In this document: positions 2,311 to 28,538 of the stretch, in pieces | Position numbering within the stretch: the first letter of the stretch is position 1 | Layout: the number at the start of each line of letters is the position of its first letter | DNA from: a bacterium | GTDB taxonomy: Bacteria > Bacillota > Clostridia > TANB77 > RGIG9151 | Assembly (NCBI GenBank): GCA_963635575.1 | Contig: CAVHFU010000008.1 | Coordinates: 12,575 to 44,574 of the forward strand | Direction of reading: 5' to 3' | Length of the DNA: 32,000 nt | Notes under the pieces: generated by a model | What the model was told of the DNA's origin: nothing | The model's input: the letters and a program-made list of their open reading frames with translations, nothing else | The model's database searches: none | Position numbers and translations under genes: made by a program

Positions 2311-3852
2311 ATGGAAACTGGTATAGTTGTTTCTATCTGCCTTATTGTTTTTGCGGTGGGAATCGCAATAGGATTCTTTATACGCAAAATGATTTCTGAA
2401 GCCAAAATTGGCTCTGCTAGAAAAGAAGCTGAGTCAATTATTGAAGATGCGAGAAAAACTGTTGAAAACGAAAAAAGAGAAATGTTACTTCAAGCAAAAG
2501 AGGAAATACACAAGAATAGGGTAGAATTAGAAAGAGAAATCAAAGAAAGAAGAAATGAAATGCAAAGACTCGAAAGAAGAGTTTTGCAAAAAGAAGAAGG
2601 ATTAGATAAAAAATCCGAAAGTTTAGAACAAAAAGAAGAACAATTGGCTAAAAAGATTAAAGAAAATCAAGAGCTAAAAGAAGAATTAGAAGAAAACATT
2701 AAGAAAGAACAGGCTGAACTTGAAAAAGTTGCCGGAATGACAGCTGAAGAAGCTAAGCAAATGCTTATTAAAAACATTGAACATGAAGTTAAGTTAGAAA
2801 CTGCATTAATGATAAAGAATGCGGAAATGACAGCTAAAGAAGAAGCTAATAAAAAGGCTAAAAACATTATTGCTACTGCAATTCAAAAGTGTGCTGCTGA
2901 CCAAGTGGCAGAACATACAGTGTCGGTAGTTGCATTACCTAATGATGAAATGAAAGGTAGAATTATTGGTAGAGAAGGAAGAAATATCAAAGCGTTAGAG
3001 ACTCTAACAGGAATTGATTTGATTATAGATGATACTCCTGAAGCAGTTATTTTATCGGGATTTGACCCGGTAAGACGTGAAGTTGCAAGAATTGCACTTG
3101 AAAAGTTAATTTTAGATGGAAGAATTCATCCTACAAGGATTGAAGAAATGGTAGAAAAGGCGCAAGCCGAAGTGGAAGACATTATGCGTGAAGCCGGAGA
3201 AGAGGCTTGTTATAGTGTAAATGTTCACAATTTGCATCCTGATCTTGTAAGATTACTTGGAAAATTAAAATATAGAACGAGTTACGGCCAGAATGTATTA
3301 ATACATTCTATCGAAGTAGCTCATATAGCCGGACTTATGGCGTCTGAATTAGGTTTAGACCCAGAAATGGCTAAACGTGCAGGGTTATTACACGATATAG
3401 GTAAGGCTATAGACCAAGAAATGGAAGGATCACACGTACAAATCGGTGTTGACTTGCTAAAGAGATATAAAGAATGTCCTGAAATATTAAATGCAGTTGA
3501 GGCACACCATGAAGATGTTGAGCCTACATCTATTACTGCTATTTTAATTCAGGCTGCTGACTCTATTTCTGCAGCACGTCCTGGTGCTAGAAAAGAAACT
3601 TTAGAAGCATATATCAAGAGAATTGAAAAAATTGAAGAAATTACAACATCATTTAAGGGCGTTGATAAATCATTTGCAATTCAAGCAGGTCGTGAAGTTA
3701 GAATTATAGTAAATCCTGAAGATATTTCTGATGCAGAGATGACATTACTTGCTCGTGATATAGCTAAGAAGATTGAAGCTGAAGTAAGTTATCCTGGTCA
3801 AATTAAAGTAAATATTGTTCGTGAAACAAGAGTAGTAGATTACGCAAAGTAG
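2311..3852 (+). CDS. rny: Ribonuclease Y
   Basis: Track ORF 2296..3852, with the start moved to ATG 2311 (METGIVV...) behind a GGGAGGG RBS. N-terminal TM helix, long Glu/Lys coiled coil, KH domain ([13 protein letters not shown]) and HD domain (LLHDIGKA ... EAHH). Confidence 0.95.
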
Positions 3853-3863
3853 TCATAATTACA

Positions 3864-3889
3864 GGCAACGGTAATCCGTTGCCTTTTTT
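3864..3889 (+). terminator. Rho-independent terminator after rny
   Basis: GGCAACGG (3864..3871), loop TAAT, CCGTTGCC (3876..3883), then TTTTTT (3884..3889). Perfect 8-bp GC-rich stem. Confidence 0.85.
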
Positions 3890-3891
3890 AT

Positions 3892-3966
3892 GCTCCCATA
3901 GTTTAATGGATAAAATGGCAGATTCCGATTCTGCAGATGTAGGTTCGATTCCTACTGGGAGTGCCA
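3892..3966 (+). tRNA. tRNA-Arg (anticodon CCG), CCA encoded
   Basis: Hand-folded cloverleaf of 75 nt. Acceptor GCTCCCA/TGGGAGT, D-arm GTTT-AATGGATA-AAAT, anticodon stem GCAGA/TCTGC with loop TTCCGAT (CCG). 4-nt variable loop, T-arm GTAGG-TTCGATT-CCTAC, discriminator G, CCA. Confidence 0.85.
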
Positions 3967-3995
3967 AATTAATTGTTAGAGAGGAAGTGGAATAA

Positions 3996-5009
3996 ATGAG
4001 ATATCCACGTAATTTAAGAATTGGAGATAGTATAGGAATATGTGCACCATCTTGTGGAATAACAGATGAGAAGAAAATAAAAAGATTAGATTTAGCTTAT
4101 TTACAATTAAAAGAATTAGGATATAAGATACTTGAAACCAATAGCGTACGAAAAGAAATTAAAGGAAGAAGTGCACCTAGTGAAGAAAGAGCAAAGGAAT
4201 TAATGGAATTATTAGAAAATCCGGAGATTGGCTTGGTTTTATATGCAACCGGCGGAGATTTTTTAGTAGAAATGCTAGACTTTCTAGATTGGGAAAAATT
4301 AAAAAACATTGAACCAAAGTGGACACAGGGGTATTCTGATATAACAAGTATTTCTTTCCTATTTAATACTATTTTGGATGTCCCATCTATCTATTGTCAA
4401 ACAATAAAGGATTATGCAATGAAGCCACTTCATAAAAGCCTTATAGATGCATTAAATATTGCGCAAGGAAAGCTGGTAGTTCAAAATTCGTTTGAAAAAT
4501 ATGAAATAAAGAATGAGAATGAAAGCCCAATAGCAACATATAACTTAACCGAAAAGGTAGAGTGGAAAAACCTAAATGGTGAGGAAGAAATAAGAATGCG
4601 TGGTCGCTCGATGGGGGGATGCTTAGACTGCATAAAGTGCTTTTTTGGTACAAAGTATGATAAAATTAATGAATACATAAATAAATATAAAAATGACGGA
4701 ATAATTTGGTTTTTAGAAGTATTTGAAATGAGTACACCGGAAGTTTTTAGAGTCCTTTGGCAAATGAAAAATTGTGGGTATTTTGATAACTGTTCAGGAA
4801 TTATTTTCGGGAGACCATTGTTTGTCAGAAAAGATTATGATATAAGTTTTAATGAAGCAGTTAAAGATGCACTTGGAGGACTTGATATTCCTATAATATA
4901 TGATGCAGATATAGGGCATGTGTCTCCACAACTTGCAATTGTAAATGGTGCAGTACTTGAGATTACTTCTAAAAGTGGAAAAGGAACGGTAAAAACTTTC
5001 TTTGAATAA
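3996..5009 (+). CDS. S66 family LD-carboxypeptidase (MccF/LdcA-like)
   Basis: 337 aa. Typical S66 layout: N-terminal GDSIGICAPS, ATGGDF, nucleophile motif QGYSDITS, and C-terminal DADIGHVSPQ (catalytic His). Confidence 0.8.
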   Translation: MRYPRNLRIGDSIGICAPSCGITDEKKIKRLDLAYLQLKELGYKILETNSVRKEIKGRSAPSEERAKELMELLENPEIGLVLYATGGDFLVEMLDFLDWEKLKNIEPKWTQGYSDITSISFLFNTILDVPSIYCQTIKDYAMKPLHKSLIDALNIAQGKLVVQNSFEKYEIKNENESPIATYNLTEKVEWKNLNGEEEIRMRGRSMGGCLDCIKCFFGTKYDKINEYINKYKNDGIIWFLEVFEMSTPEVFRVLWQMKNCGYFDNCSGIIFGRPLFVRKDYDISFNEAVKDALGGLDIPIIYDADIGHVSPQLAIVNGAVLEITSKSGKGTVKTFFE

Positions 5010-11071: not shown

Positions 11072-13534
11072 ATGATTAAAAAAGCAGTTGTTACAAGTAT
11101 ATTAACATTAGGTTTGGTTTCATTCGCATATGCATCAAATAATATTACATACTACGGAATACCAAACGGTGACCAAAAAATTAATTTAATAAATTTTAAT
11201 GATGTACTAAGCCAAGGTGAAGGATATTGGGCAAAGTCAGCTATTTATCAAATATCTTCTTTAGATATAATGCAAGGAATGGCAAATGGGGTGTTTTCTC
11301 CAACAACAAAGGTTACAAATGAACAAGCTATAACTACTGTCTTAAACTCAATGGGAAAAGCAACCGAAGTAAATGACCAAAAAGTAATTTCAAATTATTG
11401 GTCGGATAAATATATAAAATATGGAATAAAGAATGGGCTTATTACAGGAAAAACAGTTATGAGACTATCTGAAATAGCTGGAAATTTAGACACGATGAAG
11501 AAAAAGGGAGTGTATGTAAGAGATGCGGCGATAACACGTGAAGAAATGGCTGAGCTTATTGCAAAGGCATTTTCCTTATCATCGACTTCTGCAGATGAGA
11601 AAAAGCCACTTGAATTCATGGATAGTAACCAAATAGATACAACAAAAAAATCATATGTTGATGCAGTTTCAATGAATGGAATAATGGTTGGTTCAGATGA
11701 CAATATGTTTAACCCGAAAAGTGGATTGACTAGGGCAGAATTAGCTCAGATATTAAAAAATTGCGAATCATATATTTTAGCAAACTTAGGAGTTACTAAA
11801 CATACAGGATTTATAGAGAGCGTAGGAACTGGTAGTATTTTAATTTCAGATGAAAACGGAGATAGCATAACGGTAGATTTAACAGGAAAAAATATTCCGA
11901 CATTAAGAAATAACATACTAACAGGTACATATTCATTAAAAAGTTCTGACGAAATTGAGTATTACGTAGATGCTAAAAAGAATGTAAAATTCATAAGAGT
12001 AACTGATGCAAGTATATATGGTGAAGAACAAGAGGAACAAGAAAAGAACCAAAAACAAGGAATTGTTACAGGTAACAGTCCATATTTTTATGAAATAGCT
12101 ATAAAGGATAAAAACGGAAACGTAGAAAAATATACTTACGGAAGATGGACCGAGATTTATAAAGATGGTAAAGAAACATCTGCAAGTAGCATTATGCAAG
12201 GGGATACAGTATATCTTGAGTTTGATAATTTGGGAGACTTAGTTGTTATAAGAGGTGTAACTAATGCAGTTATAAGTTATGCTACTGTTACAGAAATTAG
12301 TGGTACAAAAGTTACTATGGTACCTGATGATGGTAAAGCCGAGAAGTATGACTTGAACAATGTGCCAATTTATAAAAATGGTGAAGAAATATCTGTGGAC
12401 AACTTGCATAATGGTGAGTATGCAAAACTAAGTTTGTCACAAAATAAGCTAATTAAAGTAGAAATTGTTGTTGACGAAAGAAGTTGTGAGGCAATATACA
12501 AAGGATATATAAGTGATATTAATTTAATTCAAGACAGAATTATTATTAGAAATCCGTCACAATTAAAAGATGGAAAGTGGACTAAATTAACAGATAATTT
12601 TATAACATTACCATTAGATAGAAATATGCAAATTAGCTATGAAGGAATTAATATGGCTAAAAATGAATTAGGTGAAAAACAAGTAGGAAAGTTTGCATAC
12701 ATAGCAGCAAGAAAAGATACTGAAGTATTAGAAAAAGTGAAAGCTATGAATATAGGAATAAAAGGAAAAGAAGAAGTTATAACAGGTGAAGTTTCTAAGT
12801 TTAATGAAAGTACAGGAGAATTAAGAATTAGTGGTAACTCTATAAAACCATATGTGGATGAAAATACGGTACTAGTGATAAATAATAAAATAGTAACAAA
12901 GGCCGATTTTAGTAAAGGCGATAACTTAGCAGTAGTTGTTTCTAAAGATGATAATGGAGATTATATCGCTAAACTAATAACAACAATAGACGAAGTGGAT
13001 AGCGAAAGTAGAGATGTGTATGCATATTTCGGAAAAGTAAAGTCTATTGACGAAGGCAATGAAGTAATAATGAATATAAGTGCAAGGTATGAAGATGAAG
13101 AATGGATTATTGGAAAAGAAAGAAACGCATCTTTTGTTATAACATCAAACACAAGAATATTTAATGAGACCGAACCTCTTAACTTTGATGAATTTAATAA
13201 GGAATATAAAGGCAAAGAGATATGTATTGTTGCATATGGAGATGAAGCTGTTATAATTACAGTTGTTTCAATCACAGATACACCATATATATTTATGGGA
13301 AGCGTAGATGATGTGGAAACGGATAAATTTACTGTTACTGATGTCGAGATTTATGACTTAGAAAATGAAGAATGGACTGAAAGCACAAAAGAAGAAGTAA
13401 GCATTTCAGTAAATACAGCAATTACAAAGAACGGAAAGTATGCAAAGTCTTCAGATATAAAATACGGACAAGAAGTCGTAGTAATAAAGCCTGATGAACA
13501 AAGTAGTGCAGCAGTAGTTTTACTTAATGATTAG
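11072..13534 (+). CDS. Secreted SLH-domain cell-wall protein (three N-terminal SLH repeats, large C-terminal region of unknown function)
   Basis: Signal peptide MIKKAVVTSILTLGLVSFAYA. SLH-like repeats lie roughly in residues 40-235 (e.g. FNDV..WAKSAIYQ...GVFSPTTKVTNEQA and FMDSNQID...SYVDAVSMNGIMVGSDDNMFNPKSGLTRAELAQIL). The remaining ~580 aa has no motif I recognise. Confidence 0.8.
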   Translation: MIKKAVVTSILTLGLVSFAYASNNITYYGIPNGDQKINLINFNDVLSQGEGYWAKSAIYQISSLDIMQGMANGVFSPTTKVTNEQAITTVLNSMGKATEVNDQKVISNYWSDKYIKYGIKNGLITGKTVMRLSEIAGNLDTMKKKGVYVRDAAITREEMAELIAKAFSLSSTSADEKKPLEFMDSNQIDTTKKSYVDAVSMNGIMVGSDDNMFNPKSGLTRAELAQILKNCESYILANLGVTKHTGFIESVGTGSILISDENGDSITVDLTGKNIPTLRNNILTGTYSLKSSDEIEYYVDAKKNVKFIRVTDASIYGEEQEEQEKNQKQGIVTGNSPYFYEIAIKDKNGNVEKYTYGRWTEIYKDGKETSASSIMQGDTVYLEFDNLGDLVVIRGVTNAVISYATVTEISGTKVTMVPDDGKAEKYDLNNVPIYKNGEEISVDNLHNGEYAKLSLSQNKLIKVEIVVDERSCEAIYKGYISDINLIQDRIIIRNPSQLKDGKWTKLTDNFITLPLDRNMQISYEGINMAKNELGEKQVGKFAYIAARKDTEVLEKVKAMNIGIKGKEEVITGEVSKFNESTGELRISGNSIKPYVDENTVLVINNKIVTKADFSKGDNLAVVVSKDDNGDYIAKLITTIDEVDSESRDVYAYFGKVKSIDEGNEVIMNISARYEDEEWIIGKERNASFVITSNTRIFNETEPLNFDEFNKEYKGKEICIVAYGDEAVIITVVSITDTPYIFMGSVDDVETDKFTVTDVEIYDLENEEWTESTKEEVSISVNTAITKNGKYAKSSDIKYGQEVVVIKPDEQSSAAVVLLND

Positions 13535-13543
13535 GGGGATAAT

Positions 13544-14980
13544 ATGAAAAAGTTTTTAATGCTTTTAGCGTCAATTTTAATGTTTTCAACGGCCTATGCA
13601 TATGAGCCTTCTATTACTCAGCAGGTTGCGGGAAACAAGAATTTAAATTGTAAGGAAGTAGTTTTTATATCCGGAAAGCCGGTTGAAATGGAAGGGACAT
13701 TGACTGTAAGTAATTCAGGAAAAAGTTCAACGTTAGCGGAATCCTATACGTATAAGTTAGAAGATGAAGAAGGAAATACACTATCTCGCCAACTTACGTT
13801 TTCGATTGCTTCAAGCGAAAAAAATAATGGTCAAGTTTCTAAAGTATGGGATTTAACTAAGTTTAGTGAAAGCATAACTATAGGTGCAACAACATATACT
13901 TTGGAAAAGTATGATTTCGGAAGAACTGAGTTAGACGATGTAAAGCCGGTAGGTACTTATTTTGCCGGCAACTTAAATATAAGTAAGACATATAGTGATG
14001 GAACTGAAAAAGGGAAAATAAAAATTGTCGGCTCCGGCTCATCTTACGGTTATAATACTTGTTGGGCGAATAATGAGGTTGTTAATATGACATATACAAT
14101 TTCAGGCACATCAGAAACAGGTACGAGTTGGACTGGTAAGTATAGAACAACAACGTCTAATACAGATAAAAAGAATATTGTGTATATTGAAAACAAACCA
14201 ACAGAAATAAGTTTTGATGGCGGATTTATGCTATCAGAAAGTAATGTAAGTACACTTAGATATTCTTCAGAATTACCTGAGTTTTATGGAACAAAGATGC
14301 TAAATTATATAGTTACAGATGAAGGGTCGTTTAAGTATGAATCATTTCCTGTCCAAACAAGGCTGGCAAACTATTCTCTAAAAGGAATAAAAGGGCACTG
14401 GGGAGAAAAAGCTCTACGTCAAGCATTTGCACTTGAATATATGGATGAATGGAAAGACAATACAACACCAAATAGCGGGGTAACAAGGGGAGAATTTGCA
14501 AAGATTATTGCGCTTGCACTTAAATTAGATATGAATAACAACACGAAGAAAACCAATACTACAACAAATACATCAGTCAAAGAGCAATTAGTATATAAAG
14601 ATGTCCCGGAAACAAATGAATATTATAAGTACATTATGGCTTTAACTCAGAAGGGTGTAGTGAAAGGAACAGGAAATTCAAGATTTCAACCAAATGCAAT
14701 AATAAGTAGAGCAGAGGCTGTTACAATGATTATAACTGCATTAGGATTTGAAGATAAAGCACCGGAGCCATTACCAATACTAAATTTTAACGATAATTCA
14801 GAAATACCAAAATGGTCAGAGAAATATATATATATGGCAAATAAAATAGGACTTATAAACGGAGATGAGTACGGAAACGTAATGCCAACAAAGGCATTAA
14901 CAAAAGCAGAAATAGCTACTATTACGAATAATATGGTTAAATATATAATTGAAGAATTAGGCGAGGAATATATTTTGTAA
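13544..14980 (+). CDS. Secreted SLH-domain cell-wall protein (three C-terminal SLH repeats)
   Basis: Signal peptide MKKFLMLLASILMFSTAYA. The C-terminal ~200 aa contains three SLH repeats (HWGEKALRQAF...GVTRGEFAKII; YKDVPETNEYYKYIMALTQKGVVKGTG..FQPNAIISRAEAVTMI; FNDNSEIPKWSEKYIYMANKIGLINGD). It starts 9 nt after the previous gene, with a GGGGG RBS. Confidence 0.8.
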   Translation: MKKFLMLLASILMFSTAYAYEPSITQQVAGNKNLNCKEVVFISGKPVEMEGTLTVSNSGKSSTLAESYTYKLEDEEGNTLSRQLTFSIASSEKNNGQVSKVWDLTKFSESITIGATTYTLEKYDFGRTELDDVKPVGTYFAGNLNISKTYSDGTEKGKIKIVGSGSSYGYNTCWANNEVVNMTYTISGTSETGTSWTGKYRTTTSNTDKKNIVYIENKPTEISFDGGFMLSESNVSTLRYSSELPEFYGTKMLNYIVTDEGSFKYESFPVQTRLANYSLKGIKGHWGEKALRQAFALEYMDEWKDNTTPNSGVTRGEFAKIIALALKLDMNNNTKKTNTTTNTSVKEQLVYKDVPETNEYYKYIMALTQKGVVKGTGNSRFQPNAIISRAEAVTMIITALGFEDKAPEPLPILNFNDNSEIPKWSEKYIYMANKIGLINGDEYGNVMPTKALTKAEIATITNNMVKYIIEELGEEYIL

Positions 14981-22128: not shown

Positions 22129-22157
22129 AGTATATGACTTATAGAAGATGTTGTCAA
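22129..22157 (-). promoter_or_regulatory. Sigma-A promoter for the oxidoreductase operon (TTGACA-17 nt-TATACT, minus strand)
   Basis: On the minus strand, -35 TTGACA is at 22157..22152, followed by a 17-nt spacer and -10 TATACT at 22134..22129, about 45 nt upstream of the gamma-subunit ATG. Confidence 0.65.
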
Positions 22158-22178
22158 GGAACAGACCCAAAATAAAAT
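22151..22178 (+). promoter_or_regulatory. Candidate plus-strand promoter toward the pilin operon (TTGTCA-16 nt-TAAAAT)
   Basis: TTGTCA at 22151..22156, a 16-nt spacer, and TAAAAT at 22173..22178. Its -35 overlaps the minus-strand -35 back to back. It would give a leader of about 185 nt, and I found no stronger match closer to 22368. Confidence 0.3.
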
Positions 22179-22367: not shown

Positions 22368-22562
22368 ATGAAGTTAAAAAAATTGGTAAAAAAAGGTGGA
22401 ATCGCTGATATTGTCACTTTGATGATTATTGTAGGTCTAGTTATCGCGTTAATTATCGCAGTTGTTCTTCCTATGGTAAGGACAGCACGTACTGCCGGTG
22501 GAAGTGCAGACGAAGGAATTAATGAAGCTAATAGCACTATTGATTTTATACGTAGTCACTAA
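22368..22562 (+). CDS. Pilin-like small protein 1 (class III signal peptide-like N-terminus, Flp-sized)
   Basis: 64 aa, with an AAAGGAGGAG RBS 7 nt upstream. Sequence MKLKKLVKKGG-IADIVTLMIIVGLVIALIIAVVLPMV-RTARTAGGSADEGINEANSTIDFIRSH: a basic leader, GG, an approximately 25-residue hydrophobic helix and a short polar tail. Confidence 0.8.
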   Translation: MKLKKLVKKGGIADIVTLMIIVGLVIALIIAVVLPMVRTARTAGGSADEGINEANSTIDFIRSH

Positions 22563-22597
22563 TAATGCGAGAGCCTAGTAATAAGCTTGTTATTAAA

Positions 22598-22636
22598 AAC
22601 CGGCATTAATGAAACTATTATTGCCGGTTTTATAAT
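22598..22636 (+). terminator. Terminator-like hairpin between pilin genes 1 and 2
   Basis: AAACCGGCA (22598..22606), approximately 15-nt AT loop, TGCCGGTTT (22622..22630), followed by TATAAT/A-rich sequence. The T-tract is short and partly within the stem, so termination is probably partial. Confidence 0.5.
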
Positions 22637-22674
22637 AAAAGTAAAAAAATTCTCGTTTGAGGGAGTAGATAGAT

Positions 22675-22848
22675 ATGAAAAGAAAACAAAAAGGCGGAAT
22701 AGAAGGAATTATAGCTACTATAATTATGGCGGGACTTGTTCTAGCTCTTATTATTGCAGTAATATTGCCTATGACTAGAGGAACTAAAGTTACTGGAGAC
22801 ACAGGAAAAAATAAAATAACCGAATTAAACAGCAGATTAGGTGGCTAA
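22675..22848 (+). CDS. Pilin-like small protein 2 (absent from the supplied ORF track; 57 aa)
   Basis: Hand translation from ATG 22675 (GAGGGAG RBS upstream) gives MKRKQKGGIEGIIATIIMAGLVLALIIAVILPMTRGTKVTGDTGKNKITELNSRLGG, with stop TAA at 22846..22848. It is a clear paralog of proteins 1 and 3. The track ORFs 22587..22778(+) and 22593..22802(-) are off-frame or antisense shadows of it. Confidence 0.8.
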   Translation: MKRKQKGGIEGIIATIIMAGLVLALIIAVILPMTRGTKVTGDTGKNKITELNSRLGG

Positions 22849-22879
22849 GGTGAGAAATTTATTTAAAGAGGTGATTACG

Positions 22880-23059
22880 GTGAATAGAAAATTAAAAGGT
22901 GGAATGGAAGGTATTATTGCAGCCATTATTTTAGCTGGACTTGTAGTAGCACTTCTTTTAAGTGTTGTTATGCCTATGTCTAATGAGGGAGATAAACTAA
23001 TAGACAAGACTACCAATAAGTTAGTAACCCAACAAGGAAATATGCGACCAACAAATTAA
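22880..23059 (+). CDS. Pilin-like small protein 3 (GTG start)
   Basis: Track ORF 22841..23059. The start is placed at GTG 22880, 6 nt after AGAGGTGA, giving (M)NRKLKGGMEGIIAAIILAGLVVALLLSVVMPMSNEGDKLIDKTTNKLVTQQGNMRPTN. Its leader length then equals that of paralog 2. Confidence 0.75.
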   Translation: MNRKLKGGMEGIIAAIILAGLVVALLLSVVMPMSNEGDKLIDKTTNKLVTQQGNMRPTN

Positions 23060-23094: not shown

Positions 23095-23601
23095 ATGAGT
23101 GAAAAAGCTTTAAAATTAAAAAAAGGTGGTTTGGATACCATTATTGCATATATCGTGGTAATGCTACCTCTTTTGTATGTTCTTGTTTATATAATTGCTA
23201 CTATATATCATTTTTCCGTACAAATGTATATGAACCAAGTAGTAAAAGAAGCAACAGTTATGGCGAGTACTTATGGTGAGGTAACGACTGGTCATGCAGA
23301 TTACATAGAGGAAAAACTAAAAAATATACTAGATAAAGATGAACATGGAAATGTATGTAGAATCGAGTACTATGTAAGACCATTTGATGAGAATAGCGGA
23401 GTAGTCGGAGCCGTACTAGGACCATATGATACAATTCCTACTGTTAAAAAAGCTGACATAATAGGAATTTATGTTACATCAATAAAGCCGTCAATATTAG
23501 GAAATGTCTCTAGTTTTAGTTTATTTGGTGGTGGTTCAGATACAAATAATTTGTATTATACTTCTTATAGAGAGGAGATTATAAGAAATGAACACCCGTG
23601 A
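23095..23601 (+). CDS. TadE-like pseudopilin/minor pilin candidate
   Basis: 168 aa. MSEKALKLKKGG-LDTIIAYIVVMLPLLYVLVYIIATIYHF..MNQVVKEATVMAS has the same basic-GG-hydrophobic N-terminus as the three small proteins. It resembles the TadE-like N-terminal domain pattern (G-x-x-x-[ED]-x-x-x-x-x-P-hydrophobic ... polar-A-x-x-x-A). Confidence 0.65.
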   Translation: MSEKALKLKKGGLDTIIAYIVVMLPLLYVLVYIIATIYHFSVQMYMNQVVKEATVMASTYGEVTTGHADYIEEKLKNILDKDEHGNVCRIEYYVRPFDENSGVVGAVLGPYDTIPTVKKADIIGIYVTSIKPSILGNVSSFSLFGGGSDTNNLYYTSYREEIIRNEHP

Positions 23602-24571
23602 TATTATAAAAAATAATAAGGGCAGCGGGTTGGGAGTTATCTTATACGGAGTAACTTTGTTACTTATATTGATTTTCGTAGCAGTAAATATAGTTAATGC
23701 GAAAGTTATTGAAAATGGATATAATTCTTTAAGGGACGCCGTGCAATCCGCATCTACCGGTTCTGTTATTCATTTATTAACTAAGGAAAGTAGCACTAGC
23801 ACACAGGCTCAAAAAAATATTATTAGTGGAGATAAATATGACATATATCTTCAGTTGGCCTTAGGGTATATTATAAATAGAAATACTAACGCAATAAACA
23901 ATACTTATGCTCAGTCCGGTGAATTAAATAACTTCATAAAGTTAGACCACCAAAAAGTAGTAAATGAAACTATGGCGCTACTAGAAAATGCAATAATAAG
24001 GAGGAAAGAGGCTAGTACGATAAATGATACCAATAAATATAAAATAATGATGTTCTTTATAGAACCTTACTATGATGATAATACAAGCAAAAAATTTTTC
24101 CATATAGTGGCTTATGGAAATGGGGACTATGATCTTAATCGCGGAATCCAAGAAGAAATAGCGGAAGATATGGTTAGAAGTGATGACACAGATGACTTGA
24201 AGATTGTATATAAAAAAGTAGAAAGTTCTATAAATAATATAGTTAATTGTGGACATGACGGTATGGATGAAGCTGATAAAACATCTTATGGTATGAGTAC
24301 TAGTTTTGAAATAAATTTGAATGCTGATGGCTCTAATGATTATGATAAATTAATTAGAGAAATGGAAACATATCCTCATTACTTAATAGTAGTAAAGGAT
24401 TTTGCACTTCCAACTATATTCGATGGCGTAGAAACTAATAGCGGTAATCCTGGAATAAAGAGTGTATTTACTAGTTTATCCGGTGACGGTTCCTTATCTT
24501 CACCAATGTGTGCGCTAAATACAGGTAAAATTCAAAGACAGACGGAGGATAAAGGCTGGAGCCATAGATAA
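23588..24571 (+). CDS. TadG-like (TadE/G-like N-terminal domain) pilus-associated protein candidate
   Basis: 327 aa, overlapping the previous gene by 14 nt, with a GAGAGGAG RBS. The N-terminus NNKGSGLGVILYGVTLLLILIFVAVNIVNAKVIENGYNSLRDAVQSAS resembles the Tad 'TadE/G-like' motif (hydrophobic helix then L..A.D.A). I do not recognise the remainder. Confidence 0.55.
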   Translation: MNTRDIIKNNKGSGLGVILYGVTLLLILIFVAVNIVNAKVIENGYNSLRDAVQSASTGSVIHLLTKESSTSTQAQKNIISGDKYDIYLQLALGYIINRNTNAINNTYAQSGELNNFIKLDHQKVVNETMALLENAIIRRKEASTINDTNKYKIMMFFIEPYYDDNTSKKFFHIVAYGNGDYDLNRGIQEEIAEDMVRSDDTDDLKIVYKKVESSINNIVNCGHDGMDEADKTSYGMSTSFEINLNADGSNDYDKLIREMETYPHYLIVVKDFALPTIFDGVETNSGNPGIKSVFTSLSGDGSLSSPMCALNTGKIQRQTEDKGWSHR

Positions 24572-24573
24572 TT

Positions 24574-25086
24574 ATGAAAAAGGATTTAATATTTACATTT
24601 GTCTTATTTTTAATACAATGTATTTTAGTAACAGCAATAAAGGGTTTTACTTACCCTTTATTGTTGTTATTTTTAGTTTTTGGAATTTTTACTTATATTT
24701 CAATAATTGACTGGAGAACGGGTCTTATATCTGTAGAATTAAATATCGGTGTTTTTGTGTTATCTGCATTATATGCTTTTTTTAGTTCTATGTCGTTAAA
24801 AGTTATTGGGATTAATTTTTTATGTTTTGTTTTGCCATTTATATTAATAGAAGCATTTTTTCAACTAGTTATAAATAGAGGAAAAGATCCGGAAAAGTTT
24901 TTAGTTGGTGGGGGAGATATATTTCTTTTTGCTAGTATGTCGATGCTTCTTAGCACATTTGGCATGATGATTATGTTATTTTTTGCTTGCTTATTTAGTT
25001 TAATTGCATCTAAAATAATAAAAAAGAGTTTAATTCATTTTGCACCATTTATTCAAATTGGATTACTTATAGCATTATTTTTCTAA
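24574..25086 (+). CDS. A24 family prepilin peptidase (short TadV/CpaA/FlaK-like form, no methyltransferase domain)
   Basis: 170 aa and polytopic. The first catalytic Asp context is YISIIDWRTGLIS (about D46) and the second is LVGGGDIFLFASM (about D115), matching the two-aspartate A24 signature. It starts 2 nt after the previous stop. Confidence 0.8.
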   Translation: MKKDLIFTFVLFLIQCILVTAIKGFTYPLLLLFLVFGIFTYISIIDWRTGLISVELNIGVFVLSALYAFFSSMSLKVIGINFLCFVLPFILIEAFFQLVINRGKDPEKFLVGGGDIFLFASMSMLLSTFGMMIMLFFACLFSLIASKIIKKSLIHFAPFIQIGLLIALFF

Positions 25087-25114: not shown

Positions 25115-27670
25115 ATGTTAATATTATCTTTTTTGGTTCCGGTATTACTGTGGTTACTGGCCATAGCAGTATGCGAAATTTTTCCTTTTGGAGAGTATAC
25201 ATTACTTACATCTGATATGTTTTTTCAGTATACTTATTTTTTAGAGTTTTACCAAAGGGTATTACAAGAAGGAATTGATGTATTTTACTCCTTTGCATAT
25301 GGTTTAGGCTCAGAAACATTGGGACTAATAGCATATTATTTAGCTAGTCCCCTAAATTTTATACTTTATCTCTTTAGTAAAGAAAATATAACGGAGGCTA
25401 TATTAACTATTAATCTAGTTAAAATTGGTTTGTGTGGCTTAAGTTTTGGAATATTTCTAAAAGCAAAGTTTAATAAAAAATCTTGGATTAATATAGGATT
25501 TTCCACTTGTTATGCACTTATGGCATATAACATGGTTTATCAATTTAATATAATGTGGTTGGATGGAGTAATTTTATTACCTATTATAGTTTTAGGAATT
25601 GATAGACTCTTTGAAAAAAATAAGCCTTTTTTATTTTACTTTAGCTTGCTTGTTGCGATAATTTCTAATTGGTATATTGGGTGGATGTTATGTATCTTTT
25701 CGTTTTTATATGTAATATATTTATCATCGCCTAATTTTAGAGAAAATATAAAGAAGATAGGTAAGTTAATTTTAGTTGGAATATTATGTGCAGGTTCGGC
25801 TATGATTACTATACTACCAACTGTTTATTCTCAATTACAAGTTGAATCCAGATTGGATTTAGTAAAAGATAATATTGGAAATATAAACTTTAAAGCTTTA
25901 GATATCTTATCTAAGTTTATTACGGGCTCATTTTACTATGGGGAAATAACTAGCAAAAATGTATATTCTGAGTTCTTAAATTTGCCAAATGTTTTTTGCG
26001 GTATTTTTATTACTCTTTTAGTCATATTATATTTTACAAATAAAAAAATAGACAAAAAAGATAAGATTAAAGATGGCGTTATTTTGACGATTATGTTTGT
26101 AAGTTGTTTATTTAACGCTATTAATATTATTTGGCATGGATTTAGTATTAACGCGTGGTTTCCGTATAGATATTCATTTATTATAAGTTTTGTAATGATT
26201 TTTATTGCATATAAGAGTTATTGGAAACTAGATGATATTGATAATAAAAAAACATTAAAGATATTTGGAATAATAGCGCTAATTTGCTTTGTTATCGAAA
26301 AAATGGAATATACTTATTTAGTAGATGGGGTAATATATGTAACATTGCTGATTTTGGGGATGTATATTTATGTACTTATATGTTGTAAAAATAAGAAATA
26401 CTTTATAGGTTTATTGGATTTTATTATTTGTTTTGAATTGCTTATAAACGCCATCATTGTATTCCCCAATTTTTTATATAGAAGTAGAAATGAAATTTAT
26501 GCTACAGAAGCAGCTTTTAATACGGCGATAGAAAGTATAGAAGAAAATGACAATGGATATTTTAGAGTGGAAAATAATATTGGTCAAGCTCCTCTTCAGT
26601 TTGGGAAAAATGTAATAGGAGTAAGTAATAGCAGTAGTACTGCTATGGAAAAGGGATTTGCATTGCTAGACGGATTGGGATTTTATAGAATTAGTAATGT
26701 TACTTTGAATTACAATTTTACTACTCCATTTAACGATTCTATTTTAGGGATAAAGTATCTTGTAGGAGATGGAGAAAAAACTTATTATAAGGAATATGAT
26801 AAGGAAAATAAAATTTGGATAAATCCTGATGCTTTATCTTTAGGGTTTATGGTAAATGGGAAAATAGATAATGTAAAAGATTTATTAAATTTAGCCGGAA
26901 CTTCAAGAGACCCATTTGAAAATCAAAATAATATAGCTCAGAATATGATTAAAAACGGAAAAGAAATCTTTAATAAAATAAATATTTCTTCGATAGAGCG
27001 TAATAATTTAATTGAGAGTGAAGGAAGATTTTATCAGGAAAGTAAGCTTGAACCGTCATCCATTAAATTTGAAATTGATGTTGAAGAAGAAAAAGATATT
27101 TATTTAGAAATATATGGAAAAGGAGCTGATGAAAAGAAAGAGAAGCTATATGTAAATGGTAATGACTTTTTAGGAAAAGAAAAATATGTAGAGGATTTTG
27201 GTATTATTAATCTAGGTAAATTTAAAAAAGGTGAAAAAGTAGAAATTGAAATTAAGTATTTAACTACTGGTGAGTTTCCGGTAAAAAGCGTATATGCGTA
27301 TTATTTTAATGAAGATGAATATAAGGAATTAATAAGTGAATTAAAAAATAATCAGCTAGATATTTATAATATGACTAGTTCGAAGTTAGAAGGAAGAGTT
27401 AATGCGACTAATGATAAAGAAATTTTACTTATAACATTTTTATATAATGGCTTTATGAAAGTAAAGGTAGATGGCGAAGAGGTAAAACCGGTAGAGGTTT
27501 TGGATTCACTAATTGGAATTAAATTATCTGAAGGAGAACATACGATAGAATTATGGTATGAGCCGACATTAGTAAAAATAAGCGGATTGGTTTCGTTGGT
27601 GTTCATTATTAGCTCTTGCTTGGTAATTTCATTGTGTTTTAGAGAAAAAGGTTATAAAAAGGAGTTTTAA
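25115..27670 (+). CDS. YfhO family GT-C membrane glycosyltransferase
   Basis: 851 aa. The N-terminus IFPFGEYTLLTSDMFFQYTYFLEFYQRVLQEG..FYSFAYGLGSETLGLIAYYLASPLNF closely follows the YfhO pattern (compare B. subtilis YfhO as I recall it: YPFG.KTLL..DM..QY..F...). About 13 TM segments, a large extracytoplasmic C-terminal domain and a final TM anchor. Confidence 0.85.
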   Translation: MLILSFLVPVLLWLLAIAVCEIFPFGEYTLLTSDMFFQYTYFLEFYQRVLQEGIDVFYSFAYGLGSETLGLIAYYLASPLNFILYLFSKENITEAILTINLVKIGLCGLSFGIFLKAKFNKKSWINIGFSTCYALMAYNMVYQFNIMWLDGVILLPIIVLGIDRLFEKNKPFLFYFSLLVAIISNWYIGWMLCIFSFLYVIYLSSPNFRENIKKIGKLILVGILCAGSAMITILPTVYSQLQVESRLDLVKDNIGNINFKALDILSKFITGSFYYGEITSKNVYSEFLNLPNVFCGIFITLLVILYFTNKKIDKKDKIKDGVILTIMFVSCLFNAINIIWHGFSINAWFPYRYSFIISFVMIFIAYKSYWKLDDIDNKKTLKIFGIIALICFVIEKMEYTYLVDGVIYVTLLILGMYIYVLICCKNKKYFIGLLDFIICFELLINAIIVFPNFLYRSRNEIYATEAAFNTAIESIEENDNGYFRVENNIGQAPLQFGKNVIGVSNSSSTAMEKGFALLDGLGFYRISNVTLNYNFTTPFNDSILGIKYLVGDGEKTYYKEYDKENKIWINPDALSLGFMVNGKIDNVKDLLNLAGTSRDPFENQNNIAQNMIKNGKEIFNKINISSIERNNLIESEGRFYQESKLEPSSIKFEIDVEEEKDIYLEIYGKGADEKKEKLYVNGNDFLGKEKYVEDFGIINLGKFKKGEKVEIEIKYLTTGEFPVKSVYAYYFNEDEYKELISELKNNQLDIYNMTSSKLEGRVNATNDKEILLITFLYNGFMKVKVDGEEVKPVEVLDSLIGIKLSEGEHTIELWYEPTLVKISGLVSLVFIISSCLVISLCFREKGYKKEF

Positions 27671-27671
27671 T

Positions 27672-28150
27672 ATGCGAAAATATTGTAATTACTTTATAAT
27701 ATTAGCTGTTGCTATTATATTACTAATACCAATGTTTCTTAATGAATATCCAGATTTTAAATCTGATGCATCATTTCATATTGCAAATGTGTTAGCTATT
27801 AAAGAACAGATTTCGCAAGGAAGATGGGAGAGCTTAATTTTAGGTAAAATAGCTAATAATTTTGGATATGGTACAAGAATATTTTACCCTCCTCTCTCTC
27901 AAACGGTAACGGCTTTTATTAGTTATTTTATTTGGGATACAACTTAGAAAAAGGCAATGAGATTATAGACTTATATGAGAATTCTAATGGCTTCTTGGAA
28001 GCTAAAATAAAAGAGAATGGAAGATATATTTTAACACATAAACTTACGATTATACAGAGAATTGCTAGGGTAATTTCGTTATTCACATGTATTAGTTTAG
28101 TTGTAATATATATTGCTAAATTTAGATATAGAAATAACATTAATGAATAG
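27672..28150 (+). pseudogene. Remnant of a second GT-C/YfhO-like membrane glycosyltransferase (N-terminal 91 codons fused out of frame to about 72 C-terminal codons)
   Basis: ORF 27672..27947 encodes TM1 plus a loop with an Asp/His motif (PDFKSDASFHIANVLAIKEQISQGRW...GYGTRIFYPPL), typical of the start of large GT-C enzymes, but stops after 91 aa. ORF 27932..28150 is in another frame and has only a TTG start. It encodes ...ENGRYILTHKLTIIQRIARVISLFTCISLVVIYIAKF, mirroring the YfhO C-terminal end (EGEHTIELWYEPTLVKISGLVSLVFIISSCLVISLCF). Confidence 0.6.
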
Positions 28151-28286: not shown

Positions 28287-28538
28287 ATGACAAATGTAAA
28301 TATAACTAATTTTCGAAAAAATGTATATGAATTACTAGAAACGGCTATAAAATACAATGAACCGATTAATATTTCTACTAAAAACGGTAATGCAGTTGTA
28401 TTGTCTGAAGATGATTATAAAAATATCATGGAAACATTATATATATCATCTATACCTGGTTTAAAGGAAGAAATTGTAGAAGGATTAAATGCGAATGATA
28501 GTGAGTTCGTGCCGGAGGACGAGGTGGATTGGAACTGA
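28287..28538 (+). CDS. yefM: Phd/YefM family antitoxin
   Basis: 83 aa, with a GAGGAGGAG RBS. ITNFRKNVYELLETAIKYNEPINISTKNGNAVVLSEDDYKNIMETLYI is the YefM fold signature. Confidence 0.9.
   Translation: MTNVNITNFRKNVYELLETAIKYNEPINISTKNGNAVVLSEDDYKNIMETLYISSIPGLKEEIVEGLNANDSEFVPEDEVDWN

Follow-up and report, generated by a model that had tools for sequence, protein, structure and literature searches.

Three tandem genes and their signal

Annotation pipelines and pilin finders depend on the G/xxxxE(Y) rule (throughout, a slash marks the site of cleavage). What, then, are three tandem genes that look like prepilin genes and break this rule? These small paralogous genes, p1, p2 and p3 (64, 57 and 59 aa), lie in the genome of an uncultured gut member of the Clostridia, within the 32-kb stretch of DNA that we analysed as a whole (the window). 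The original prediction described them as mini-pilins with a non-Flp, archaeal-looking class III signal. The region around the three genes reads as follows:

22151..22178, + strand: promoter-like site (TTGTCA, 16-nt spacer, TAAAAT) in the 244-nt gap upstream of p1
22368..22562, + strand: p1, 64 aa, ATG start; MKLKKLVKKGG/IADIVTLMIIVGLVIALIIAVVLPM and a polar tail (open reading frame, ribosome-binding site, family alignment)
22585..22642, + strand: stem-loop and U-rich run between p1 and p2 (RNA fold)
22675..22848, + strand: p2, prepilin-like paralogue, 57 aa, ATG start; MKRKQKGG/IEGIIATIIMAGLVLALIIAVILPM and a tail (open reading frame, alignment)
22880..23059, + strand: p3, prepilin-like paralogue, 59 aa, GTG start; MNRKLKGG/MEGIIAAIILAGLVVALLLSVVMPM and a tail (open reading frame, alignment)

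All three open reading frames were found where they had been predicted, each with a Shine-Dalgarno-like sequence 5 to 8 nt 5' of its start. The mechanical list of open reading frames gives a longer p3 (72 aa, from a GTG at 22841); the predicted start at the GTG at 22880 is supported by the leaders of the orthologues, which are equally short (MSKKLKGG, MNNKLRGG). The promoter-like site matches the consensus at 10 of 12 positions and is weak, such sites being no commoner in the region than in shuffled sequence. The stem-loop between p1 and p2 (-28.1 kcal/mol; z = -5.5 against 200 shuffles) is possibly a terminator or attenuator after the first pilin gene, as judged from its predicted fold; it was absent from the output of a simple terminator scan.

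Each of the three proteins begins with a Lys-rich leader and an invariant Gly-Gly; about 26 uncharged residues come next, and the polar tail is variable. The predicted alignment pattern was confirmed in the form of an invariant K-G-G, I at +4, G at +12 and P-M at +24/+25. Counted from the Gly-Gly, the mature parts would be 53, 49 and 51 aa long (family medians, 51 and 64 aa), and each has one hydrophobic segment and, after it, a short polar tail, as expected of a very small, one-helix pilin of the Flp/Tad kind. Relative to p1, amino acid identity is 47% for p2 and 30% for p3, and the nucleotide identity among the paralogues, which had been called moderate by eye, is 55–61%. That the duplications are old and maintained agrees with the presence of orthologous p1/p2/p3 triplets in every related locus examined and with dN/dS values of 0.17–0.49 in eight of nine orthologue comparisons, which indicate purifying selection on the cassette described below (p1, 0.31–0.34; p2, 0.17–0.49). 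Among p1-type orthologues, pairwise identity falls from 89% in mature residues 1–26 to 28% in the next 20; this gradient from a conserved helix to a variable tail is typical of pilins. A protein identical to p2 is present on other contigs.

To describe the signal more generally, we surveyed 169 distinct family members. Gly-Gly is followed by I, V, L or M in 167 of them, and Lys stands at -3 in 150. Leader length ranges from 6 to 23 aa, the median net charge of the leaders is +4, and the stretch after the Gly-Gly is free of charged residues for 26 positions. The family thus shows the arrangement that defines class III signals, a hydrophilic leader with Gly as its last residue and then about 21 hydrophobic residues, and the description of p1–p3 as pilin-like, with a short basic leader ending in Gly and then one long hydrophobic helix, is upheld. 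The motif statement also stood: not one of the 167 members has Glu or Asp at +5, Tyr at +6 or Phe at +1, and 160 of them carry an acidic residue at +2 or +3, shortly after the glycines.

The cleavage site predicted from these alignments is KGG/[IVM]. This prediction is supported by leaderless relatives in locus L015, because they begin exactly at the residue aligned with +1 after the Gly-Gly (one of them is 50% identical to p2 over 48 aa). The Lys of the K-G-G junction is at -3 if the cut falls after the second Gly, as the leaderless homologues favour, and at -2 if it falls after the first; archaeal class III signals are marked by a basic residue at -2 with Gly or Ala at -1. A cut after the Gly of 'IEG' or 'MEG', by analogy to 'MKG' in L015, was considered and rejected; this position is D, T or S in most members.

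Comparison with known pilin families bore out a distinct family. None of p1–p5 (p4 and p5 are introduced below) matched a Pfam or NCBIfam model, including Flp, N_methyl, Class_IIIsignal and Pilin_N; with 34 family members and the p4 and p5 orthologues added, these searches yielded only sub-threshold single-span noise (DUF6724, DUF7288, FeoB_associated). At E ≤ 1, neither p1–p3 nor the 34 members matched Flp_Fap (PF04964) or related Flp-like models, and the G/xxxxEY motif of Flp is absent, Glu5 and Tyr6 being missing from all 167 members. Likewise, p1–p3 and the 34 members gave no match to N_methyl (PF07963; IPR012902 class). The PilFind core pattern ([GAS]-x4-[DE] followed by 14 uncharged residues; regular expression from Imam et al. 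2011, PMC3244431), run as the class III predictor check, was absent from the N-termini of p1–p5, which fits a distinct family. The archaeal models PF04021 (Class_IIIsignal/DUF361), PF07790 (Pilin_N) and TIGR02537 gave no Pfam/NCBIfam match at E ≤ 1. The sole archaeal-related match was to DUF7288 (14.6–15.3 bits for p2 and p3; best E in the family, 0.0045), below its cutoff of 27 bits. Searches of PDB by sequence and by profile with the mini-pilins and with the peptidase found nothing meaningful.

Larger pilin-like genes, prepilin peptidase and glycosyltransferase

Four further genes follow p3 on the same strand:

23095..23601, + strand: p4, 168 aa; …KLKKGG/LDTIIAYIVVMLPLLYVL…, mature part beginning LDTII (open reading frame, same signal)
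23588..24571, + strand: p5, 327 aa, overlapping p4 by 14 nt; …NKGSG/LGVILYGVTLLL…, mature part beginning LGVIL
24574..25086, + strand: A24 aspartyl prepilin peptidase, 170 aa, short TadV/FlaK type (Pfam PF01478)
25115..27670, + strand: YfhO-family membrane glycosyltransferase, 29 nt downstream of the peptidase gene (Pfam PF09586)

The original prediction had missed this part of the region, that is, p4 and p5 with the same signal, the A24 peptidase directly after them and then YfhO. The signal on p4 and p5 is again G-G or G-x-G followed by hydrophobic-x-x-I-hydrophobic; therefore, all five genes upstream of the peptidase share it.

From its sequence, p4 is probably a minor pilin and distantly DUF4320-like. 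Homologues of p4 are present in every related locus that extends to its position. Using hhalign, the p4 profile was aligned to post-pilin proteins of Tad-like loci with probabilities of 93% (L015) and 86% (L016), and the 146-aa post-pilin protein of L015 scored 19.9 bits against DUF4320, below the cutoff of 25. Window p4 and five orthologues gave no match to DUF4320 (PF14208) itself at E ≤ 10, and a literature search on DUF4320 found nothing.

The AlphaFold2 model of p5 (mean pLDDT 67.5) has a helix at residues 14–58 and an alpha/beta domain. On this model, p5 would be a pilin-like protein in which a long helix at the N-terminus is followed by a globular domain without a known-fold match. It has no Pfam match, and Foldseek of the model against PDB returned nothing at E < 0.1. 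The sole PDB match of the p5 profile, a designed repeat protein, was judged spurious. The p5 profile showed no relation to a 261-aa protein of L016, and a word-indexed homologue search found only a closed family (full-length matches of at least 39% identity) and no outgroup.

The peptidase matched PF01478 with 36.9 bits (cutoff 26.5; E = 5.3e-9), and PF01478 is also in the precomputed annotation of all 55 full-length homologues. Asp46 (in SIxDW) and Asp115 (in GGGD, the GxGD motif) are invariant in 22 homologues, and there is no methyltransferase domain. Its AlphaFold2 model is confident (pLDDT 89, pTM 0.82) and had no Foldseek match in PDB at E < 1. As with p5, the word-indexed search found only a closed family (full-length matches of at least 56% identity) and no outgroup. 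The peptidase follows p5 in every related locus that extends that far and presumably processes p1–p5. Since a dedicated, divergent A24 peptidase always accompanies the mini-pilins, it is a reasonable inference that the family has a peptidase specificity of its own, as had been proposed.

The YfhO gene matched PF09586 over the whole profile (positions 1–835 of 835; 562.5 bits, E = 2.5e-168). In L003/L004, YfhO is joined to the cassette on the other side; in L006, L009 and L011 it is absent from next to the cassette; and in L017/L018 a Wzy_C enzyme lies inside the cassette. YfhO is a candidate pilin-glycosylating enzyme in facultative association with the cassette.

A cassette with and without a Tad-like motor

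The six genes p1-p2-p3-p4-p5-peptidase are kept as a unit, with conserved order and spacing, in at least four genomic contexts, and all six are intact in many lineages. The family is narrow. When 1.84 billion representative proteins were searched exhaustively with profiles, only 105 clusters were returned, and their names were uninformative on look-up (one 'hypothetical protein' only). A scan of species-representative genomes returned only four loci, all in uncultured Clostridia or Eubacteriales and none with a motor gene nearby. All source-named contigs with the cassette are metagenome-assembled genomes of Clostridia or Eubacteriales, the flanking genes are clostridial or bacterial (sporulation, SLH, PFOR, ribosomal), and the composition of the cassette is that of its flanks. 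Neither the whole 32 kb of the window nor, in any context, the sequence up to 10 kb from the window-type cassette contained a gene for a secretion ATPase or platform protein, and no conserved cargo gene adjoins the cassette.

The assembly genes appeared in relatives. On the metagenomic contigs L017 and L018, a homologous cassette lies directly downstream of Tad-type assembly genes, namely an RcpC/CpaB-like gene, an AAA_31/MinD-like gene (TadZ analogue), a T2SSE TadA-like ATPase gene and two weakly T2SSF-like (TadB/C-like) genes, whose platform proteins are small. In this cassette, three KGG mini-pilins are accompanied by homologues of p4 (two, with 45% and 37% identity), of p5 (34% identity, E = 1e-56) and of the peptidase (52% identity). 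The best NCBIfam match of the ATPase was the TadA-family model TIGR03819 (1.8e-26), at 93 bits far below the curated cutoff of 373 bits. More distant members are found in L015, beside a CpaB-like gene (TIGR03177, 5.6e-10, below cutoff), a T2SSE ATPase gene and a T2SSF-like gene, and in L016, with a partial ATPase and two TadB/C-like proteins. Their links to the family are short hydrophobic alignments (profile E of 1.6e-6 and 3.3e-4), with which the genomic context agrees.

Most Tad-type assignments in L015 and L017 are below curated cutoffs; those above are T2SSE in both loci, SAF in L015, and AAA_31 and Wzy_C in L017. The gene set that marks a Tad locus (tadA, tadB/tadC, and tadZ and/or rcpC) was seen in L017/L018, L015 and L016, mostly through such below-cutoff assignments, and was not seen in the window-type contexts. 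A cassette without a motor (L013) and one with a motor (L017) occur together in two metagenomes. In a same-genome check of these two loci, GC content was compatible and the tetranucleotide correlation was 0.96, a value that does not discriminate, all these low-GC contigs giving 0.82–1.00.

A probable divergent Tad-like pilus and its alternatives

We consider it likely that the region supplies the pilins and their processing for a Tad-like (type IVc) pilus, one that is divergent and specific to Clostridia, and is not an archaeal-type system. This reading follows from L017/L018, where the cassettes come directly after Tad-type assembly genes; a Tad-like affinity is also indicated by the size of the subunits (mature length about 46–64 aa), by the order of the genes and by a short peptidase that has no methyltransferase domain.

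The archaeal look of the signal, taken as kinship, did not hold up: homologous cassettes sit in bacterial Tad-type loci (L017/L018, with similar loci in L015/L016), no archaeal pilin model was matched, and hosts and partner genes are clostridial and bacterial, respectively. The archaeal flavour of the signal is real only weakly. Recent acquisition of an Epd/EppA-like pilin set from Archaea would account for the basic-Gly junction, the missing Glu5, the sub-threshold DUF7288 match and the presence of a peptidase gene alongside those of its pilins, an arrangement known from the Methanococcus eppA operon (PMC2910488). We regard it as very improbable, given that PF04021, PF07790 and TIGR02537 are absent from the match lists, that source-named contigs and flanking genes (sporulation, SLH, PFOR) are clostridial, that the linked RcpC/CpaB-like genes are a bacterial Tad feature and that cassette and flanks have the same composition. 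A decaying remnant, left when a Tad-like locus lost its motor and its function, deserves equally little credence: the motor genes missing beside the cassette are indeed retained in L017/L018, but six intact open reading frames in many lineages, dN/dS values of 0.17–0.49, invariant catalytic Asp residues and conserved order and spacing in at least four contexts all speak for a maintained unit.

The missing motor could also mean that the proteins work differently. A short pseudopilus, acting as a piston in protein secretion or DNA uptake and driven by a motor encoded elsewhere (for example, a Com or type IVa set), would fit several minor-pilin-like genes with a dedicated peptidase and no motor nearby, and a protein close to the L013 cassette has a weak N_methyl match, so that conventional type IV machinery may exist in these organisms. 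We think this unlikely, since the linked motors in L017/L018, L015 and L016 are Tad-like rather than Com- or PilB/PilC-like, the hypervariable, Ser/Thr/Asn-rich tail of p1 suggests surface exposure and no conserved cargo gene adjoins the cassette. Quite unlikely, too, are membrane micro-proteins that are trimmed by the peptidase and, instead of polymerising, form an ATPase-independent complex, possibly with YfhO in envelope glycosylation. The window-type cassette has no ATPase nearby in four contexts, in two of which YfhO adjoins it, and the sole below-threshold Pfam matches are to single-span membrane families. Against this stand the homologous cassettes embedded in Tad-like assembly loci, a YfhO link that is not universal and the pilin-typical gradient from helix to tail. 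Substrates of A24 peptidases are not known to have an ATPase-independent function.

For a divergent Tad-like pilus, we infer cleavage and its exact site, filament formation, subunit roles and glycosylation as follows. The products of p1–p3 are probably Flp-sized prepilins, inserted in the membrane with the Lys-rich leader in the cytoplasm, and the short A24 peptidase, with D46 and D115 as catalytic residues, probably removes everything up to and including the invariant Gly-Gly. The mature window subunits would be about 46–55 aa long and start with [I/V/M]-[A/E]-[D/G/T/S]-I-[I/V]. They are predicted not to be N-methylated, because the peptidase has no methyltransferase domain, and the acidic residue at +2/+3 would replace the missing Glu5. 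The likely major subunit is p1, since its gene comes first and is followed by the hairpin and since its hypervariable tail sits on a near-invariant helix; p2 and p3 are likely to be minor or alternative subunits, and p4 (DUF4320-like) and p5 minor pilins with a part in priming or capping the fibre. To polymerise, the subunits would require a TadA-type ATPase and a TadB/C-type platform, encoded immediately upstream in relatives and presumably elsewhere in the genome in the window lineage. YfhO (Wzy_C in relatives) may plausibly glycosylate the Ser/Thr/Asn/Gly-rich tails.

A joint reading goes further and is offered tentatively, as we find it rather doubtful when all its elements are taken together. 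It posits a bacterial type IV pilin lineage that has lost the otherwise universal Glu5 (and the Tad-specific Tyr6), in which a K-G-G/[IVM]-[E/A]-x-I signal is read by a co-evolved mini A24 peptidase; a self-contained, relocatable pilin/peptidase cassette served in trans by a Tad-like motor; sister subunits in L015 that are leaderless from +1; and glycosylation by the interchangeable lipid-carrier enzymes YfhO and Wzy_C. If it is true, the leaderless L015 subunits would make leader removal dispensable for assembly in that branch.

How far the system departs from known ones can be seen by comparison. Tad pilins are 40–60 aa long and have neither a globular domain nor Pro22 (PMC10710030). As in the Flp/Tad pili of Aggregatibacter (Flp1) and Caulobacter (PilA), mature subunits would be very small and without a globular domain; as in Tad loci, tandem pilin paralogues are followed by larger pilin-like genes (compare the pseudopilins TadE/TadF), the A24 peptidase is of the short kind that has no methyltransferase domain (TadV/CpaA), and the L017/L018 module comes after rcpC/cpaB-, tadZ- and tadA-like genes and two tadB/C-like genes. 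In contrast to Flp, there is a K-G-G/[IVM] junction with an acidic residue at +2/+3 in place of G/xxxxEY, and unlike Tad pilins the mini-pilins have a conserved Pro at +24. Nor is there any match to Flp, TadE or Tad Pfam models, and the pilin and peptidase module of the window lineage is separate from motor genes. Gram-positive tad loci with non-canonical or unrecognisable prepilins have already been noted, and the clostridial 'tad-like' loci of Imam et al. 2011 have Flp-like pilins without Tyr6 or no recognisable prepilin (PMC3244431). These loci resemble ours in their Clostridia hosts, in divergent tadA/tadC/tadV/tadZ/rcpC homologues accompanied by species-specific small genes and in pilins that escape PilFind-type rules; their description mentions neither the mini-pilin family nor its KGG signal nor a motor-less cassette.

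An archaeal Epd-like pilus has been proposed as the ancestor of Tad systems (PMC6668835), and in the Epd pilus of Methanococcus maripaludis DUF361 pilins share an operon with the dedicated peptidase EppA (PMC2910488). Here, too, the A24 peptidase is co-encoded with its pilins (in Epd, peptidase specificity matches a family-specific +1 region), and in both systems the major pilins are short and do not require Glu5. The Epd signal, however, has Q at +1 in QxSxExxxL and not KGG/[IVM], its host and partner genes are archaeal, and the mini-pilins match no sequence model.

The mini-pilin family is invisible to pilin finders, having no Pfam or NCBIfam model, no PilFind pattern and, at 57–59 aa, a length below common cutoffs for open reading frames; therefore, pili may be overlooked in the annotation of a group of uncultured Clostridia from gut and rumen. 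If the predicted processing is true, the family would be a bacterial counter-example to the statement that 'Glu5 is absolutely conserved' and would offer a matched peptidase/substrate pair for work on A24 specificity. Relatives that lack a leader would then serve as a natural experiment on the need for prepilin leaders. The general view of type IV filaments is unchanged, and the known range of the Tad branch is extended.

Wzy_C-family oligosaccharyltransferases (PilO/TfpO, PglL) O-glycosylate pilins, and YfhO-family GT-C enzymes glycosylate teichoic acids or adhesins. As in PilO/TfpO/PglL systems, the gene for a lipid-carrier-dependent glycosyltransferase lies beside or inside the cassette (YfhO in the window and in L003, Wzy_C in L017); unlike in those systems, the association is absent in some cassette lineages. 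The repeated occurrence of glycosyltransferase genes at the cassette suggests glycosylation of Tad-type pilins in Firmicutes.

The six-gene cassette and its common signal

The three small open reading frames of the original prediction (p1, p2 and p3) were recovered, each preceded by a Shine-Dalgarno-like sequence. They are followed by two larger pilin-like genes (p4 and p5) and an A24-family peptidase gene:

p1, 22368-22562, 64 aa
p2, 22675-22848, 57 aa
p3, 22880-23059, 59 aa from GTG
p4, 23095-23601, 168 aa, N-terminus MSEKALKLKKGG-LDTIIAYIVV
p5, 23588-24571, 327 aa, N-terminus ...NNKGSG-LGVILYG

Since p3 orthologues have short leaders (e.g. MSKKLKGG), we favoured the p3 start at 22880 over a longer mechanical ORF from 22841. 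When aligned, the N-termini of p1–p3 consist of a K-rich leader, Gly-Gly (GG) and [I/M]-[A/E]-[D/G]-I-[I/V]. The hydrophobic run is long, with an invariant Gly at +12 and Pro-Met at +24/+25 (+1 being the first residue after GG), and a polar tail follows. The N-termini of p4 and p5 are kept in their respective families. The peptidase (170 aa) matched Pfam Peptidase_A24 with 36.9 bits (curated cutoff 26.5), and its Asp46 (S-I-x-D-W) and Asp115 (G-G-G-D) were invariant in 22 homologues. Thus, a gene for a prepilin-type peptidase comes after five successive genes that share a signal of Gly-Gly or Gly-x-Gly and a hydrophobic stretch. A full-length YfhO-family glycosyltransferase gene lies 29 nt 3' of the peptidase gene. 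The 14-nt overlap of p4 and p5 (23588-23601) and the 2-nt gap between p5 and the peptidase gene (24571-24574) suggest that translation of the larger pilin-like genes is coupled to that of the peptidase. The 112-nt gap after p1 contains a strong hairpin (-28.1 kcal/mol, z = -5.5) and, 3' of it, a U-rich run, consistent with higher expression of p1 than of the remaining genes.

Searching with a profile built from the three paralogues gave 158 small proteins; among the 120 matches listed, none had an informative name and one had a precomputed Pfam match, to an unrelated viral family. We analyzed the signal in 169 distinct family members. GG was followed by I, V, L or M in 167 of these, and 150 had Lys at -3 relative to the predicted cut. 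Leaders of 6-23 residues had a median net charge of +4, and ≈ 26 uncharged residues came after GG. As predicted, Flp and type IVa hallmarks were missing: position +5 was never Glu or Asp, +6 never Tyr and +1 never Phe. The acidic residue expected just after the glycines was at +2 or +3 in 160 members.

Nucleotide identity between the paralogues was moderate (55-61%), again as predicted. The p1, p2 and p3 types form orthologous groups that occur in the same order at every related locus; therefore, the triplication is old. With dN/dS of 0.17-0.49 in 8/9 orthologue comparisons, the earlier proposal of old and maintained duplications was borne out. Within the p1 type, pairwise identity was 89% for mature residues 1-26 and 28% for the next 20, and 53% of tail residues were Ser, Thr, Asn, Gly or Asp. 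Such a contrast between a near-invariant predicted N-terminal helix and a hypervariable, putatively exposed end is classic for pilins.

No Pfam or NCBIfam model reached its cutoff for p1–p5 or their orthologues, and the Flp, N_methyl, Class_IIIsignal, Pilin_N, TadE and Tad models gave no match to them even at E <= 1 to 10. PilFind, a published pilin predictor, relies on a core pattern ([GAS]-x4-[DE] plus 14 uncharged residues; PMC3244431) that was missing from all five N-termini. Searches of PDB sequences and with Foldseek found nothing; the structure model of p5, a 45-residue N-terminal helix plus an alpha/beta domain, had no structural neighbours in Foldseek. Since only 105 clusters (E <= 1e-3) came out of an exhaustive HMMER search that covered 1.84 billion representative proteins, the mini-pilin family is small and closed. 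The family reveals a blind spot of pilin annotation.

Linkage of homologous cassettes to Tad-like genes

The p1-p2-p3-p4-p5-peptidase unit was intact in at least four genomic settings:

Setting 1 (L001, L002, L005): between PFOR and YfhO/rplM, as in the window
Setting 2 (L003, L004): YfhO shifted to the upstream side of the cassette
Setting 3 (L006, L009-L011; partial views in L008 and L012, upstream side, and L014, downstream side): between a dCMP deaminase gene and an HDOD/HD-domain gene, then dnaX
Setting 4 (L013): adjoining a giant SLH-domain surface protein

All source-named contigs came from uncultured Clostridia or Eubacteriales in gut, chicken or rumen samples. In none of the four settings was an ATPase or platform gene found within 10 kb of the cassette, and the whole 32-kb window has no T2SSE ATPase or T2SSF platform gene; its flanks are housekeeping genes (PFOR subunits, gpsA, plsY, der, Lon, rplM, rpsI). 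The pilus motor genes of Methanococcus are encoded elsewhere, away from the eppA operon. The gene 3' of the peptidase in setting-3 lineages encodes an HD_5/HDOD-domain signalling protein (L006:9091-10200, with a weak HAMP match; L009:13337-14203; L011:13195-14142; L014:3652-4719), which could be a regulator or merely a conserved neighbour.

The link to Tad came from reading the contigs of weaker matches in the exhaustive HMMER search. The protein P0309 sits on the metagenomic contigs L017 and L018, which have the following gene order:

1, RcpC/CpaB-like protein (weak match)
2, AAA_31/MinD-like ATPase, TadZ type
3, T2SSE ATPase; best NCBIfam model of the TadA family (1.8e-26; 93 bits, far below the curated cutoff of 373)
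4, two proteins where TadB/TadC would be expected: 303 aa (weak match to T2SSF) and 397 aa
5, three mini-pilins with KKGG or KGG leaders
6, two p4 homologues (45% and 37% identity)
7, p5 homologue (34% identity, E = 1e-56)
8, Wzy_C-family enzyme (6e-20)
9, A24 peptidase (52% identity to that of the window)

Judged by homology, this is the gene set of the window joined to its putative motor. The locus of P0308 (L015) has CpaB-like (TIGR03177, 5.6e-10, below cutoff), MinD-like, T2SSE and T2SSF-like genes, five tandem genes of 49-56 aa, and then a protein with a weak DUF4320 match that hit the p4 profile with 93% hhalign probability. P0339 (L016) carries ...EKGG-LSSIISEIIL and is preceded by a partial ATPase and two TadB/C-like proteins. 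Physical linkage of homologous cassettes to Tad-like assembly genes is thus shown. Clostridia have many tad loci (Imam et al., PMC3244431); some encode Flp-like pilins without Tyr6 and others no recognisable prepilin (PMC3244431), a gap that the KGG mini-pilin family fits.

The JGI metagenomes 3300031555 and 3300032167 each yielded a motor-less (L013/L014) and a motor-linked (L017/L018) cassette of similar GC content (0.31-0.32). These might be two loci of one organism, although composition alone is not discriminating; if so, the missing motor would be explained.

Proposed processing and pilus

The five tandem genes of L015 (9602-10545) encode leaderless mini-pilin relatives (MKGIIATIIGFALVVALIIAVIVPIM...) and lie directly 3' of the tadZ/tadA/tadB/tadC-like block. 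Each has its own clear ribosome-binding site and starts M-K-G-I-I-A-T-I-I. Since their alignment with p2 begins at p2 residue 9 (50% identity over 48 aa, part of the tail included), their initiator Met corresponds to the residue directly after GG. The third-residue Gly is not kept in other leaderless relatives (MKS, MKQ, MEK, MKN), so the L015 proteins are probably unprocessed. They would not depend on a peptidase; the contig stops short of where a peptidase gene might be seen. The leaderless relatives provide natural evidence for a predicted mature N-terminus directly after the invariant GG of the window mini-pilins. Cleavage after the first Gly is a possible alternative.

The sequence analysis shows the genes and their common signal, selection on and conservation of the cassette, and A24 membership with both catalytic Asp. 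The cassette is probably the subunit-and-processing module of a divergent clostridial Tad-like (type IVc) pilus. Prepilins would insert in the membrane with the basic leader in the cytoplasm, and the co-encoded peptidase would cut after KGG. N-methylation would be absent, because the 170-aa peptidase has no extra domain. In the proposed fibre, p1 would be the major subunit, p2 and p3 would serve as alternative or minor subunits, and p4 and p5 would prime it or form its tip; a TadA/TadB/TadC-type machine encoded elsewhere in the genome would carry out the assembly. The role of Glu5 may fall to the acidic residue at +2 or +3, and the tails may be glycosylated, by YfhO in the window and by Wzy_C in L017.

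Such a system, known here from sequence alone, would work like the monoderm type IVc (Tad) pilus. The features that define Flp pilins (Glu5, Tyr6, a match to the Flp HMM) are missing from the family. Unlike Tad pilins, which lack Pro22 (PMC10710030), its members have a conserved Pro at +24. The family matched none of the archaeal pilin models, and its nearest relatives found are bacterial Tad-like loci in Clostridia. Of the original prediction, the separate pilin subfamily accompanied by a peptidase of its own is supported, and the archaeal, non-Tad type is not. Its "archaeal-looking" label holds a grain of truth, an archaeal Epd-like system being the presumed ancestor of Tad (PMC6668835). The Methanococcus eppA operon is a precedent for pilins co-encoded with their own specific peptidase (PMC2910488). 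Pilins that lack Glu5, pilins that lack a leader, the specificity of the peptidase and pilin glycosylation are all topics on which the system raises testable questions.

Neighbouring genes and the host surface

The Wzy_C (O-antigen-ligase family) gene (L017:9319-10584, L018:5933-7198) separates the p5 homologue from the peptidase gene, at roughly the place where YfhO adjoins the cassette of the window; therefore, two lipid-carrier glycosyltransferase families are linked to one pilin cassette. In L019, unannotated multi-spanning membrane proteins (2619-4873) follow the peptidase. A 91-aa membrane ORF (27672-27947) begins 1 nt past the YfhO stop codon of the window. It has no Pfam match, resembles an N-terminal piece of a further membrane enzyme, is kept in L001 and is missing from L005; the next ≈ 340 nt contain short ORFs only. 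An overlapping toxin–antitoxin pair, assigned from precomputed Pfam matches of the equivalent L001 genes, is located between YfhO and rplM:

28287-28538, YefM/Phd-type antitoxin, 83 aa
28529-28804, YoeB-type toxin

A protein running off the start of L013 (1-999; 403 aa per gene call) has a weak N_methyl match and lies ≈ 9 kb upstream of a window-type cassette, with a 2450-aa SLH/LRR surface protein in between. Conventional type IV pilins may coexist there with the KGG mini-pilin system. Two adjacent large SLH-domain surface proteins in the window (820 and 478 aa; 11072-14980) point to an S-layer, or to surface proteins anchored by SLH domains, in the host; any pilus would need to pass through that layer.
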